UHGV virus genome: UHGV-0364466
DNA length: 29,223 nt
Reading direction: 5' to 3' (one strand)
Origin: a virus
Below the pieces are notes generated by a model, which searched no databases, was not told the origin of the DNA, and worked only from the letters and a program-made list of their open reading frames with translations. Made by a program: the position numbers and the translations under genes. Positions 24,317 to 26,671 of this stretch are shown here, one piece after another. The stretch's first letter is position 1. Each line of letters opens with the position of its first letter.

Positions 24317-24706
24317 TTACAGAAGTGAGGGCTGGTACTGGCGGTATTTCAGCCGTCGCATCCGGCGAATGGCCTTGTAAACCGTATTGAAAGTGACACC
24401 ATAACGGGTGGTCAGTTCGCTGACGTTGCGACCGTTAAAATCATTCCAGATACGCAAATCCCGAATCAGCGAGTCCAGAACCTGACCGCGTGGAATGTAG
24501 ACCTGACCGCCGCCCAGATGCTTACAGATAGCCACAACAATCTCCAGTGAATGGGCAGGATCAACACCCAGCCGGGACAATTCCCCGCGTAGTAAATCGT
24601 TCAGCTCCGCCAGCAGTGCCGGAAAGCGTGACGTATCCTCTGCGGGATTGTCAAGATGTGCCAGGATGGTGTCATCCTGCAAATCACCAAATAAATCTTC
24701 CGTCAT
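24317..24706 (-). CDS. mor: Middle operon regulator Mor (Mor/C family)
   Basis: 129 aa, MTEDLFGDLQDDTILAHLDNPAEDTSRFPALLAELNDLLRGELSRLGVDPAHSLEIVVAICKHLGGGQVYIP...; ATG verified; abuts the gemA stop. Confidence 0.85.
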   Translation of the reverse strand: MTEDLFGDLQDDTILAHLDNPAEDTSRFPALLAELNDLLRGELSRLGVDPAHSLEIVVAICKHLGGGQVYIPRGQVLDSLIRDLRIWNDFNGRNVSELTTRYGVTFNTVYKAIRRMRRLKYRQYQPSLL

Positions 24707-25254
24707 TGTGCCATCCTCCGCGTCTTTCTGGCATGGGCATAAGCCGCCGTCATGGCATCATAGCCGCGCAGTTCACGACCGGACGGACTGACCGGCAATG
24801 GAAGCCCGTGACGGGAAAAGGCTTCACGAATACAGCGGATGTGCCACTGCTTGAGTGTTTCGAGGACTGTCAGCAGCGTGTCGCCATGACACCACGCCAG
24901 TGTGGAAACGCCCTGTCCGCCGTTGCGTTTCGCGGTCAGGCGCTGAACATATTTATCCAGCGCCACATCACCGCCATCGGTAATAAAACCGTCTTCTGCC
25001 ATCTGCTGCCAGACTTTGTACACCTTCTCGCGGGGCGTGACATGTTCCTTAAAGCGGCGACGTGGATGTTTATTCAGCTTCTTAAAGCCGCGTTCTTTCA
25101 TTGCATCGAGCGTCTGTTCCAGTTGCGTAACCGTCAGCTCGCGGCAACTGGTTTTGCCCGTTTTCTGCATCAGAAAGGCGCGGTAAGTGTCATCGTCGAG
25201 TTGTAGCTCCCGACGGGCGACATGGATTAATTTAATAAGCGATGTGCGATTCAT
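24703..25254 (-). CDS. gemA: GemA-like early protein (DUF1018)
   Basis: Start moved to ATG 25254 (MNRTSLIKLIHVARRELQLDDDTYRAFLMQKTGKTS...), GAGGTG SD at 6 nt; 183 aa. Confidence 0.8.
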   Translation of the reverse strand: MNRTSLIKLIHVARRELQLDDDTYRAFLMQKTGKTSCRELTVTQLEQTLDAMKERGFKKLNKHPRRRFKEHVTPREKVYKVWQQMAEDGFITDGGDVALDKYVQRLTAKRNGGQGVSTLAWCHGDTLLTVLETLKQWHIRCIREAFSRHGLPLPVSPSGRELRGYDAMTAAYAHARKTRRMAQ

Positions 25255-25284
25255 TTGCTCACCTCTCATATTAAGGAATGAGAT

Positions 25285-25701
25285 ATGAAAATTGATTATG
25301 ACGAGATAGCCAGAATATTTGATGTTTTTCTGGAGGCCGACACCGCATTCATTCGACTGGAAGATGTCGGCTGGGAGCGTTCTCAGCGGCACAGCGACAG
25401 CCATCAGAAGCTGGTTTTCCATCTTCTGTTGCTGGTTGAAAATGGTTTTATCAGCAACAGATATCTGGAAACAGGCACCGCAAAAAGCATTGGTCTCACC
25501 CCAACAAGCCTCGGATATTCATATTCAGGCACCAGTGTCAGACTTACACAAGATGGTCATGATTTTGCGAAAGCACTACATCAAAAACCCATTCTTGAGC
25601 GCATAAAACAGGACCTTGCCGACGCCCCGATGACGCTCGTAACAGACGTCGGCAAACAGTGGTTAACCTCGTTTCTTAAAAAGAAACTCGGGATTGAATA
25701 G
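25285..25701 (+). CDS. Hypothetical protein (138 aa) encoded antisense to the early operon
   Basis: ATG 25285 with AAGGAA SD at 6 nt; MKIDYDEIARIFDVFLEADTAFIRLEDVGWERSQRHSDSHQKLVFHLLLLVENGFISNRY...; no minus-strand ORF of 60 aa or more covers the interval; AT-richer than the flanks; 30 bp divergent from gemA, 39-nt 3' overlap with the 103-aa gene. Confidence 0.6.
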   Translation: MKIDYDEIARIFDVFLEADTAFIRLEDVGWERSQRHSDSHQKLVFHLLLLVENGFISNRYLETGTAKSIGLTPTSLGYSYSGTSVRLTQDGHDFAKALHQKPILERIKQDLADAPMTLVTDVGKQWLTSFLKKKLGIE

Positions 25702-25974
25702 TTCCCGGTTCATACGTTGCAGCACATCAAGGGCGGCGACAGCCGCCACTTTATCGTTACCATCAGCAATAGTGCGGAGATTTTCAATAATCCAGTGAGG
25801 ACTCAGTGACTCAGCAATAATGCCAAACCGGTACGCCATGACTTCATCAATAGCTTTTTCATGAGACGGCTCATATACAAAATTCACAAAGTCATGCACT
25901 TCTTTTTTCGGCAAACCACCGGCAATCAGCAGGGCGGCAAGCTCTTCTGATTTTGAAAATACACCATTATTCAT
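25663..25974 (-). CDS. Hypothetical protein (103 aa)
   Basis: ATG 25974 with GGTGAG SD, 1 nt after the stop of the zinc-ribbon gene (coupled); MNNGVFSKSEELAALLIAGGLPKKEVHDFVNFVYEPSHEK... Confidence 0.5.
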   Translation of the reverse strand: MNNGVFSKSEELAALLIAGGLPKKEVHDFVNFVYEPSHEKAIDEVMAYRFGIIAESLSPHWIIENLRTIADGNDKVAAVAALDVLQRMNRELFNPEFLFKKRG

Positions 25975-25975
25975 A

Positions 25976-26671
25976 TCACTCACCTTCACAATTCATGCAC
26001 GCCGTGTCATCGCCCATATCGCAGTGGTTGCATTTCTGCCCACCACAATGAGGGCACTCTTTCAGATATTCAGGGTTTTCATTACCGCAGGTCGGGCATT
26101 CCTGTTTCACCGTGGTGAATGTCCCCAGCCACGAATACGAATTTTCACCGACTGTCTTTTTCCCCGTTATTTCTGAATCAGAACTAATACAGTGTTTTTC
26201 AACCCATGCCACACGTGCTGAATTCAGGTGGCATCTGGCCAATTTGCTTTCGTTTCTGTAATGTTTGCTGTCCCGGTTAAATGGCAATTTCTCATTCAGC
26301 CCTGCTGAGATAAAGTCCGCATGTAATTGTTCTAATGCGGCTTCACTGTCTGCACCGGTTGATTCAAAATAATCGTAAGCATTGGCACATAATCCGGCAG
26401 CCCGGGTAAATACATCATCGCCCGTCTCCATTGCCCCATTCTTTAACCATCGGTTGTAGGCTGTATAAAAACTATAAAGTTGCTTTCTGATACAGGTAGT
26501 GGCAGTTCCGCCATTAACTGACGCTGGCGTAACATAGCCAGCTCTGCATAAAGCAGAACGAAGTATATCCAGAACCTGCCAGGCATCTTCTCCTTCAATC
26601 ACGCTACAGTTTTTGTACACCAGGACGTCCCGGCCACAACTTTTATCAATACCCCAGTCTTCAAATTTCAC
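25976..26671 (-). CDS. Hypothetical protein with C-terminal double zinc ribbon (4 x CxxC)
   Basis: Start placed at GTG 26671 (AGGAGG SD at 6 nt), overlapping the upstream stop; C-terminus CPTCGNENPEYLKECPHCGGQKCNHCDMGDDTACMNCEGE; 231 aa. Confidence 0.6.
   Translation of the reverse strand: MKFEDWGIDKSCGRDVLVYKNCSVIEGEDAWQVLDILRSALCRAGYVTPASVNGGTATTCIRKQLYSFYTAYNRWLKNGAMETGDDVFTRAAGLCANAYDYFESTGADSEAALEQLHADFISAGLNEKLPFNRDSKHYRNESKLARCHLNSARVAWVEKHCISSDSEITGKKTVGENSYSWLGTFTTVKQECPTCGNENPEYLKECPHCGGQKCNHCDMGDDTACMNCEGE

Follow-up and report, generated by a model that had tools for sequence, protein, structure and literature searches.

A moron-like accessory gene lies opposite the early operon in the variable slot beside gemA of a Mu-like phage

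Introduction

The classical prophage morons include bor, lom and rexAB of lambda, stx between Q and S, old, tin and fun(Z) of P2, and sieB of P22. Here we describe ORF138, a 138-codon gene in a viral genome of 29,223 nucleotides (UHGV-0364466), the whole of which we call the window. Like the classical morons, ORF138 occurs in some close relatives and not in others, its boundaries are sharp, it is dispensable for the lytic programme and has an orientation uncoupled from lytic transcription, and a relative of it occupies the lambdoid Q-to-lysis hotspot. Unlike them, it shows no demonstrable promoter or terminator of its own and no GC contrast to its immediate accessory neighbours.

The closest system by position is gp15 of Mu (Mup15, NP_050619; phrog_8747), which is also found in D108 and SfMu. 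In these phages gp15 fills the same slot, divergent from gemA and on the strand opposed to the early operon, overlaps the next early gene at its 3' end (62 nt with gp14) and, with a dN/dS of about 0.37, likewise looks like a real gene. Because this annotated opposite-strand gene of Mu sits in exactly the same slot, the layout of ORF138 is not new. The two proteins are nevertheless unrelated: homology was rejected by BLASTP (E 0.24) and hhalign (probability 12%), gp15 has 88 residues against 138, its partner is gp14 instead of a phrog_1988 protein, and its spacer to gemA is 69 bp long with a conserved GC hairpin (GGCGGTG-N6-CACCGCC) and an annotated semi-early promoter, as against 30 bp for ORF138.

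In the Pseudomonas Mu-like phage Fc02, olg1/sie1 and gene 10 overlap on opposite strands; the lysogen transcribes one of them, the other is transcribed with the early lytic operon, and both act in superinfection exclusion (PMC9936078). ORF138 likewise belongs to a transposable phage with overlapping opposite-strand genes. The Fc02 genes, however, lie in the repressor/ner switch region, overlap extensively and encode proteins unrelated to ORF138, whose own overlap is restricted to the 3' ends; the expression and phenotype of the Fc02 genes have been measured. A further comparison is with the defence-operon regulators of the CapW/BrxR type, since a 40%-identical homologue of ORF138 is similarly placed upstream of a CBASS operon, in one neighbourhood lineage. 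Unlike CapW and BrxR, ORF138 lacks a WYL domain; it is unrelated to them in sequence, and no defence operon adjoins the Mu-like copy. At the protein level, DUF2513 (PF10711), its relative YjcQ (PF09639) and PHROG 585 have the same size and single stand-alone domain as ORF138. Our literature search on the function of DUF2513 or PF10711 found no paper.

Results

ORF138 is a genuine gene opposite the early operon

All recognisable genes of the window, from the tail-fibre gene S through the early region, lie on the minus strand, as a reading of the sequence alone had stated. The features around ORF138 are as follows.

24703..25254, minus strand: gemA (gp16 family, 183 aa; Pfam GemA E 7.7e-31), divergent from ORF138
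25255..25284, no strand: spacer of 30 bp that separates the divergently oriented gemA and ORF138 start codons, holding both ribosome-binding sites (that of gemA is GAGGTG on the minus strand)
25273..25278, plus strand: Shine-Dalgarno sequence AAGGAA of ORF138, 6 nt 5' of the ATG, by sequence inspection
25285..25701, plus strand: ORF138 including the stop codon, ATG start, 138 aa, pI 6.2 (mildly acidic)
25663..25701, both strands: convergent 3' overlap of 39 nt, TTTCTTAAAAAGAAA, encoding FLKKK on the plus strand and, as its complement, FLFKK on the minus strand
25663..25974, minus strand: early gene of the phrog_1988 family (E 6e-52), 103 aa, all-helical, its 3' end overlapping ORF138
25255..25722, no strand: cassette segment delimited by blastn breakpoints, holding ORF138 together with the final ~20 codons of the phrog_1988 gene

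The coordinates, ATG start and Shine-Dalgarno spacing of the 138-codon frame, its distance of 30 bp from the gemA start and its 39-nt overlap with the 103-aa minus-strand gene all agree with the sequence-only reading. The AAGGAA is identical in L006 and L039, which form a lineage at 61% identity, and in L057.

The DNA of gemA is 97.7% identical to that of Mu, with the similarity ending at 25254; the start codon occupies 25254..25252 on the minus strand, and the RefSeq gene length is 552 nt. A mechanical ORF (24703..25422, 239 aa) runs past this start and intrudes 138 nt into the interval of ORF138. A gemA start farther upstream was rejected, since RefSeq and all homologues begin at 25254. The claim that no minus-strand ORF covers the interval thus fails for the mechanical ORF and holds in so far as this extension is unsupported. 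The phrog_1988-family gene encodes 103 aa from its ATG and 108 aa from an upstream GTG, and the AlphaFold model of its product (pLDDT 62) was too low in confidence for a fold search. An Rfam search of the whole window matched no RNA family.

Long antisense reading frames are frequent in the window: of 16 plus-strand ORFs of 138 aa or more, all except ORF138 are antisense to real genes. The length of ORF138 by itself is therefore not above chance, which is what a functionless chance reading frame would have in its favour. However, comparison of ORF138 with relatives in the same position gave a dN/dS of 0.09 for E. coli SE11, 0.18 for L006 and 0.24 for Salmonella L007, the latter two at saturated dS, and these values bear the mark of purifying selection. 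The protein also belongs to a family of 456 clusters in which length and motifs are kept, its fold is predicted with confidence, and the opposite strand has no supported gene over the interval, the 39-nt 3' overlap aside. The selection, the size of the family and the confident fold refute the chance reading frame, which we regard as practically excluded. ORF138 is a true protein-coding gene whose strand is opposite to that of the early operon, and RefSeq annotates the identical protein as "DUF2513 domain-containing protein".

The GC content of ORF138 is 45-47%, compared with about 55% for gemA and 44-47% for the accessory genes to the right (25700..26600). The description of the gene as richer in AT than its flanks is thus correct relative to gemA and incorrect relative to its right-hand neighbours. 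Because its GC content equals that of the neighbouring accessory genes, composition is no marker of a recent foreign insertion.

The slot beside gemA is variable among Mu-like phages

The blastn similarity of the window to Mu and SfMu breaks at 25254/25255 and restarts at 25723 (25722/25723), and no DNA similarity to either phage was detected by blastn for the segment between, 25255..25722. In SfMu the equivalent is a 630-bp segment with gp15 on the opposite strand and a gp14 homologue. Among 47 Mu-like loci surveyed, about 31 have an opposite-strand gene in the slot: a DUF2513 gene in 11, gp15 in about 15 and a divergent gp15-like gene in 5. Seven loci have no opposite-strand gene, and in these the phrog_1988 gene adjoins gemA through an overlapping TAATG. 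Comparison with Mu and Mu-like prophages therefore gave a divided answer, in that an opposite-strand gene recurs in the slot but ORF138 is not universal and Mu carries gp15. The ORF138 cassette is rare (5/5426 complete E. coli genomes), and none of the isolated Mu-like phages with a DNA match has it.

In most lineages of Mu-like phages examined, the DUF2513 gene lies directly 5' of gemA, and it is always on the opposite strand. In L092 one additional small gene stands between the two. In Kluyvera the DUF2513/phrog_1988 pair lies downstream of gemA, and the DUF2513 gene is found between gemA and a gene for a Mor-family activator. Every relative of about 36% identity or more that is carried by a phage is convergent with a gene of the phrog_1988 family and overlaps it at the 3' end; this overlap of 9-39 nt is kept in at least eight lineages, with protein identity as low as about 30-36%. 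The pairing persists in a lambdoid-type contig, where a Q-like gene and its terminator flank it on one side and the next terminator on the other.

The cassette-like presence and absence among Mu-like phages and the sharp breakpoints bear out the reading of the gene as an accessory one. ORF138 is almost certainly a true accessory gene, and the variable slot that it fills was already known. We class it with the ordinary, exchangeable accessory genes of phages, moron-like in character, and not as a novel type of element.

Expression signals around ORF138

The sequence-only reading had placed a separate promoter for ORF138 inside gemA. This was not borne out: a sigma-70 consensus scan upstream of the gene found no promoter in the window or in four other lineages, and the gemA codons 1-30, where the promoter must lie, showed no excess of synonymous-site constraint. 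In the spacer and at the start of ORF138 the identity to L006 rises to 93-97%, from a background of about 75%. This peak of identity is no evidence of a promoter, because the 5' codons of gemA give no signal of synonymous constraint. By eye, one weak candidate can be seen in gemA.

25201..25230, plus strand: weak promoter candidate in gemA codons 9-18, TTGTAG-N18-ATTAAT, 7/12 matches

It falls under the threshold of the consensus scan, and its -10 element is degraded in L006 and L039.

Downstream of ORF138 there is a hairpin.

25732..25747, plus strand: GC-rich hairpin GGCGGCGACAGCCGCC followed by ACTTTATCGT, 31 nt past the ORF138 stop, z = -1.9

An equivalent hairpin follows the stop in the Salmonella locus L007, and one also occurs in SfMu-type phages that have no DUF2513 gene. 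The hairpin could terminate the plus-strand transcript, but we did not count it as evidence of a terminator, since it encodes the conserved AAVAA of the phrog_1988 protein and occurs without a DUF2513 gene.

On the minus strand, a scan of the window from the phrog_1988 gene to gemA detected no terminator. The two mRNAs had been proposed to be mutually antisense through the 3' overlap. The overlap of 39 nt stands, but the proposed reach is too narrow: early transcription cannot reach gemA and mor by read-through without crossing ORF138, so that the antisense relation spans all of it. From the orientation of the gene against the early operon, we put the chances of expression mainly in the lysogen at about even.

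ORF138 is a divergent DUF2513 protein with a predicted winged helix

ORF138 matches phrog_585 over its full length (E 3e-31), whereas its own score against Pfam DUF2513 (PF10711) is 15.9 bits, below the gathering threshold of 29.6 bits. When relatives were collected with an ORF138 profile, 58 of the 72 sampled matched Pfam DUF2513. From these profile matches we read ORF138 as a divergent member of DUF2513 / phrog_585, its own sub-threshold Pfam score notwithstanding. The family comprises 29 close homologues and, in a library of 1.84 billion proteins, the 456 clusters at 50% identity; a genome scan with a narrower alignment gave 9 loci. Most of the 150 best representatives are stand-alone single domains of 125-150 aa that align to profile positions 1-134. 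An NCBIfam search with ORF138 gave no match. Membership in the family is mechanistically uninformative for ORF138.

AlphaFold modelled ORF138 with a pLDDT of 84.5 and a pTM of 0.77. The model has a helix-strand-helix-helix core followed by a beta-hairpin wing, that is, a winged helix (wHTH), and structure prediction, which had been suggested for this 138-aa protein, thus returned a confident answer. The best Foldseek matches of ORF138 in the PDB were nearly all winged-helix DNA-binding proteins, none of them significant; neither viral models nor the PDB gave a Foldseek match that was significant or informatively annotated, and a profile search of the PDB gave nothing at E < 0.17. With PadR, MarR, HxlR and TubR the predicted protein has in common a winged helix, in its N-terminal ~100 residues, followed by C-terminal helices, which could form a dimer interface. 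Pfam at E up to 1 gave no match of ORF138 to MarR, PadR or HxlR.

Unlike the PadR, MarR and HxlR proteins, ORF138 is acidic and has an acidic loop ahead of the putative recognition helix. The family is acidic throughout (pI 4.8-6.7), and in most members a loop rich in Asp and Glu precedes this helix, which is itself mainly hydrophobic. Because an acidic loop and a hydrophobic helix are atypical of a DNA-reading helix, the winged helix may bind protein instead of DNA. As a possible operator we found only a 5-bp inverted repeat within the spacer of 30 bp, CTCAT (25265-25269) N8 ATGAG (25278-25282), and this repeat is missing from the Salmonella and Citrobacter lineage. That ORF138 is a DNA-binding regulator is possible, though we would not call it probable.

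Relatives are found on other mobile elements and near defence genes

Relatives of 40-45% identity (143-aa marine proteins) are single-gene integron cassettes between attC-like hairpins, as judged by an imperfect hairpin with an RYYYAAC ... GTTRRRY core and a single ORF between sites. At L080, an Oceanisphaera locus, GCGGGCGTTAYA motifs stand on either side of the ORF, 549 bp apart, and in both L080 and L081 the downstream elements contain an imperfect TATAAC...GTTAYA inverted repeat and fold as long imperfect hairpins. No integrase was found on these short contigs. More distant relatives are carried by lambdoid phages, between the lysis genes and terminase or beside xis/int. The earlier suggestion that ORF138 occupies a moron position is in keeping with this spread of distant relatives over classical lambdoid moron sites, integron cassettes and defence islands.

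The 40%-identical homologue mentioned above lies ~150 nt upstream of a Cap15 and CD-NTase CBASS operon in the same orientation, and other relatives are directly upstream of genes for PD-(D/E)XK nucleases. One marine subfamily adjoins CBASS, PDC-S19 and SymE, or nuclease genes, which represents very few independent events. PADLOC gave no match for ORF138 or its phrog_1988 partner at E up to 1, nor for the CBASS-adjacent homologue at E up to 0.01. The proposal of an exclusion, defence or anti-defence function thus found no PADLOC match and only hints from neighbourhoods; we consider a role of ORF138 in defence or exclusion rather unlikely.

Discussion

The explanation that we favour as a whole is that ORF138 is a self-contained, moron-like accessory gene of a Mu-like prophage that codes for a small, soluble winged-helix protein of the DUF2513 family and is expressed in the lysogen, and we hold it with a confidence that is evenly balanced. 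The slot lies where the Pe-driven early operon meets the gemA-mor unit, with ORF138 on the opposite strand, and an early transcript reading through to gemA and mor would run antisense over the entire gene. Because of this antisense read-through, ORF138 should be expressible only while Pe is repressed, that is, in the lysogen. Its transcription would start from a weak or non-consensus promoter within the 5' end of gemA, and induction would silence it by transcriptional collision and RNA pairing. The product would most likely act as a dimer in which C-terminal helices follow an N-terminal winged helix, as in small proteins of the PadR/MarR type, and would bind DNA or possibly a protein partner. 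The lysogen would gain a conversion trait, for example by regulating or interfering with other phages or defence genes. A more far-reaching version, in which the junction of the early operon with gemA serves as a dedicated hotspot for backwards cargo, the DUF2513 protein is an anti-phage factor made by the lysogen and the overlap is an RNA off-switch at induction, appears improbable to us. The DUF2513 factor of that version may be stand-alone or coupled to the phrog_1988 protein, and may either control or execute the protection against other phages.

The constant company of the phrog_1988 gene raises the question of whether the two proteins form a functional module coupled through the complementary RNA ends of their overlap, for instance with ORF138 as an effector or regulator in the lysogen and the phrog_1988 protein as an antidote or partner from the lytic cycle. 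The pairing and its overlap in at least eight lineages have survived a moved position relative to gemA and a lambdoid context, and the overlap is a quasi-palindromic sequence that encodes both C-termini. Yet phrog_1988 genes are often found without DUF2513, as in SfMu-type loci and the seven loci without an opposite-strand gene, and DUF2513 genes occur without phrog_1988 in integron cassettes, beside CBASS, in Chlobot and in a Klebsiella phage; the shared gene order could also be mere inheritance by descent. We therefore consider such a module unlikely, if somewhat less so than phage-intrinsic control of the early-to-middle switch. In this latter case the ORF138 protein would repress or modulate the divergent gemA-mor (gem, 'semi-early') unit, or convergent transcription would block leaky Pe read-through into mor in the lysogen, with the protein being secondary. 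Regulators of the MarR/PadR type are usually transcribed divergently from their targets. The DUF2513 gene adjoins gemA upstream in most Mu-like lineages examined and lies between gemA and the Mor-family gene in Kluyvera, always on the opposite strand. The Mu spacer that is replaced here holds the annotated semi-early promoter, the spacer and gene start form the peak of identity with L006 described above, and an opposite-strand gene is kept at the boundary in about two thirds of the Mu-like loci. Expression of the gem operon in lysogens, reported in a passage of PMC3820752 that cites Paolozzi and Ghelardini (1992), would also fit. Against switch control, Mu, D108, SfMu and the seven loci without an opposite-strand gene run gemA-mor without ORF138, the family is present in lambdoid phages, integron cassettes and defence islands that lack gemA and mor, and the inverted repeat of the spacer is not shared by the Salmonella and Citrobacter lineage. 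The strong purifying selection on the protein argues in addition against a role through transcription only, and we judge control of the switch to be improbable.

Transcription in Mu middle and late phases runs on the other strand, which is at odds with ORF138 being a lytic protein for host takeover or anti-defence, driven on the plus strand by a Mor- or C-dependent promoter, and no moron of the lysogen. Expression in the lytic phase would moreover face head-on early transcription. An activator-dependent promoter would fit the absence of a sigma-70 consensus, and the homologue upstream of the CBASS operon could mean that phages copied a regulator for use against host defence, but on balance we find a lytic role very unlikely.

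The present result is mainly a tidying of annotation, in that ORF138 is real and its slot was already known. The comparative data also support the disputed Mu gene gp15 against its replacement in the revised GenBank record. Members of DUF2513 occur in transposable and lambdoid phages, in integron cassettes and in defence islands, and if ORF138 is expressed in lysogens with a phenotype, this would provide the first function for the family and its 456 clusters. On the same condition, the gene would define a second accessory-gene hotspot, in the Mu family, beside those of P2, P4 and lambdoid phages.

Genomic position of ORF138 and evidence for a real gene

The window is the late-to-early portion of a Muvirus-type (Mu-like) prophage whose genes lie on the strand complementary to the one read here. 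At approximately 97%, its left end matches Mu and D108 genes for tail-fibre S and the baseplate, and its right portion encodes Mor, GemA, a Gp11-like protein and Gam. ORF138, the plus-strand ORF under study, lies in the slot directly upstream of gemA:

25254, minus: gemA start codon, back to back with the ORF138 start (30-bp spacer between the two starts)
6 nt before the ORF138 ATG, plus: Shine-Dalgarno AAGGAA
25285..25701, plus: ORF138, ATG start, 138 codons
25663-25701: 3' overlap of ORF138 and the partner gene, 39 nt
25663..25974, minus: partner gene (phrog_1988 family), 103 aa
25976-26734, minus: 252-aa gene, phrog_6418 (E 2e-166)

The sequence-only reading had described the ORF with its AAGGAA, a start 30 bp from that of gemA and a 39-nt overlap with a 103-aa minus-strand gene, and each was borne out. 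Its statement that no minus-strand ORF of 60 aa or more covers the interval needs qualification, as a mechanical ORF reaches 25422, with an extension that has neither homology nor RefSeq support; the higher AT content that it ascribed to ORF138 holds against gemA and fails against the accessory genes on the right. We rejected a gemA start at the end of that mechanical ORF (24703-25422, minus), 56 codons upstream of the true start and inside ORF138, for which there is no homology or RefSeq model. A longest-ORF gene caller could mis-start gemA in this way and so hide ORF138.

ORF length by itself is uninformative: on its plus strand the window has 16 ORFs that reach 138 aa or more, and all except ORF138 are antisense to real genes. 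At the same genomic position, dN/dS was 0.09 against E. coli SE11 (6 synonymous and 2 non-synonymous changes), 0.18 against a 61%-identity lineage and 0.24 against a 48%-identity Salmonella lineage, with dS saturated in the last two. The constraint on which the sequence-only reading had made its ORF depend is thus seen as purifying selection across related phages. A search of 5.8 billion proteins returned 29 homologues (30-99% identity). Against 1.84 billion cluster representatives, a profile search matched 456 clusters, nearly all of whose representatives were stand-alone proteins of 125-150 aa with a full-length match. A chance ORF is excluded by the dN/dS range of 0.09-0.24 together with these homologues and clusters.

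The closest family is DUF2513/phrog_585. The ORF138 protein matches phrog_585 (E 3e-31) and alone scores under the Pfam DUF2513 threshold, while 58 of 72 relatives match DUF2513. The gene is already annotated, and RefSeq names the identical protein "DUF2513 domain-containing protein". It is rare (5 of 5426 complete E. coli genomes) and is missing from all of the isolated Mu-like phages that gave a DNA match. A literature search for a function of DUF2513/phrog_585 found nothing.

An AlphaFold model built with a 28-sequence alignment (pLDDT 84.5, pTM 0.77) places a high-confidence winged helix at residues 1-100, followed by three helices. Confidence drops across approximately the C-terminal 40 residues (block means 56-68), which would be expected of helices that make an interface. 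Small PadR/MarR-type winged-helix proteins are the closest structural class, but a test by sequence did not place ORF138 among them. Since the family is uniformly mildly acidic (pI 4.8-6.7) and most members have an Asp/Glu-rich loop ahead of the putative recognition helix, DNA binding is plausible from the model and not assured. Taken together, the results demonstrated that ORF138 is a real, constrained gene with a winged-helix product.

A variable slot upstream of gemA

At the DNA level, the similarity to Mu, SfMu and related prophages stops exactly at the gemA ATG (25254) and restarts at 25723 in SfMu-type phages and at 25965 in Mu. In the Mu reference genome, to which the sequence-only reading had pointed for comparison, ORF138 is absent and another opposite-strand gene, gp15, occupies the same slot, which has been annotated there since that genome was sequenced. 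In Mu, D108 and SfMu, gp15 encodes 88 aa and overlaps gp14 at its 3' end; it is unrelated to ORF138 by homology and is its closest positional analogue.

Public Mu annotations conflict over this slot: RefSeq has the opposite-strand gp15 (L002:2226-2492), and the revised GenBank record AF083977 replaces it with a same-strand ORF, Mu_54 (L013:1361-1528, early strand). The full-length 88-aa gp15 ORF is retained at 53% identity with dN/dS of about 0.37, while the relatives that retain gp15 do not conserve Mu_54 as an ORF; these comparative sequence data favour gp15 over Mu_54.

Among 47 Mu-like viral contigs with gemA identity of at least 77%, the slot held an opposite-strand DUF2513 gene in 11, opposite-strand gp15 in about 15, an opposite-strand divergent gp15-like gene in 5, no opposite-strand gene in 7, and other content in the remainder. 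In the seven loci without one (L043:2685-3003, L045, L051-L053, L055 and L056), phrog_1988 is joined to gemA via a TAATG in which the stop codon of the former overlaps the start codon of the latter, and which sits behind a GGGGGA ribosome-binding site. Aligned with such an empty locus, the DUF2513 gene and its 30-bp spacer look as if inserted between the stop of phrog_1988 and the start of gemA. The TAATG overlap suggests translational coupling of phrog_1988 and gemA that DUF2513 insertion would break.

The phrog_6418 gene, whose product has a cluster of Cys-x2-Cys zinc-ribbon motifs at its C-terminus, stands in place of most of the Mu gp12-gp13 segment and is a second swapped accessory cassette adjoining that of ORF138.

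A conserved convergent partner

The 3' ends of the DUF2513 gene and the phrog_1988-family gene overlap by 9-39 nt on opposite strands, and the pair is conserved in every phage context whose DUF2513 protein shares about 36% identity or more with ORF138. Such contexts comprise Mu-like prophages of E. coli (three types), Salmonella, Citrobacter, Pantoea and Kluyvera, two metagenomic Mu-like contigs, and a lambdoid-type contig in which a Q-like gene with its terminator lies on one side of the pair and the next terminator on the other. In Kluyvera (L082:4019-6226, L083) the pair is downstream, not upstream, of gemA and still opposed to the operon, indicating that it moved as a unit relative to gemA. 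After the Kluyvera pair come a 119-aa gene, whose product has a signal-peptide-like N-terminus, and then the Mor-family activator gene. The pair has been kept through saturating sequence divergence, and phrog_1988 is a conserved convergent partner.

The overlap at 25663-25701 is quasi-palindromic: TTTCTTAAAAAGAAA encodes FLKKK in ORF138 and its complement FLFKK in the partner gene. Since the C-terminal tails of both proteins resemble those of non-overlapping relatives, each protein keeps its native ending despite the overlap.

Relatives on other mobile platforms

In a marine 143-aa subfamily (40-45% identity to ORF138; Oceanisphaera, Hydrogenovibrio and Paraglaciecola), the gene is a single ORF between attC-like imperfect hairpins (TATAAC ... 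GCGGGCGTTAYA; L080:1-650, L081:5430-5530, L085:600-710, L079:5430-5525), with two motif copies 549 bp apart in Oceanisphaera. These flanks give the subfamily the look of a single-gene integron cassette; the contigs, which are short, showed no integrase. On Tara and JGI marine contigs (L087:2899-5106, L088, L089), a type I CBASS operon, made up of a Cap15 (2TM) effector and a CD-NTase, is preceded at about 150 nt by a 40%-identical DUF2513 gene with the same orientation, and the island around them also holds PDC-S19 and SymE. Inverted copies of TGACTTGTGAC around TATAAT lie upstream of this DUF2513 gene. In Alcanivorax the subfamily gene is followed by two PD-(D/E)XK/NucS-like genes. Of the more distant homologues, that of a Klebsiella phage separates the lysis genes from terminase, and that of phage Chlobot adjoins xis/int. 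The DUF2513 gene is therefore self-sufficient and mobile across platforms.

Expression signals and possible roles

Neither the window nor any of four other lineages showed a sigma-70 consensus promoter upstream of the DUF2513 gene. With 7 of 12 positions matched, TTGTAG-N18-ATTAAT (25201..25230) is the best candidate, and a sister lineage has it in degraded form. Reduced synonymous variation was not found in gemA codons 1-30. A GC hairpin 31 nt past the ORF138 stop could be a terminator of its transcript; the same bases encode Ala-Ala-Val-Ala-Ala, a conserved motif in the partner protein, and the hairpin is also present in phages without a DUF2513 gene.

The Mu-type 69-bp spacer upstream of gemA contains a conserved hairpin, GGCGGTG-N6-CACCGCC (L002:2156-2225; L007:5931-6000; L077:4930-5000). 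In the Salmonella/Citrobacter lineage a run of 7-8 T follows the spacer hairpin on the early strand, immediately ahead of the gemA ribosome-binding site, and makes it a canonical terminator, so that gemA-mor would be a separate transcription unit. The GGCGGTG-N6-CACCGCC hairpin is absent from the 30-bp spacer of the window, and no minus-strand terminator was detected there between the partner gene and gemA; early transcripts toward gemA and mor should therefore cross all of ORF138 antisense.

We propose that ORF138 would be expressed mainly in the lysogen, as it is opposed to Pe-driven transcription, that induction would shut it off by collision and pairing, and that its protein may act as a dimeric DNA- or protein-binding factor giving a conversion trait. 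Pseudomonas phage Fc02 has overlapping exclusion genes on opposite strands (PMC9936078), and the layout here is reminiscent of theirs. We consider it improbable that ORF138 is a new factor, protective or regulatory, that the lysogen makes and that is switched off at the RNA level.

Other roles may be considered. ORF138 may control the early-to-middle switch. It may form a functional two-gene module with the phrog_1988 protein, whose gene accompanies it in so many phage contexts; the phrog_1988 gene is also common without DUF2513, and distant DUF2513 genes exist without phrog_1988, so the coupling is not obligatory. It may also be a lytic-phase anti-defence protein, and the neighbours of its marine relatives hint at a link of the DUF2513 gene to defence. 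Regardless of its role, ORF138 is a swappable cassette: as the slot survey shows, the Mu family commonly has a gene facing backwards at this boundary, a feature already known, and the window carries alternative cargo in a known variable slot.
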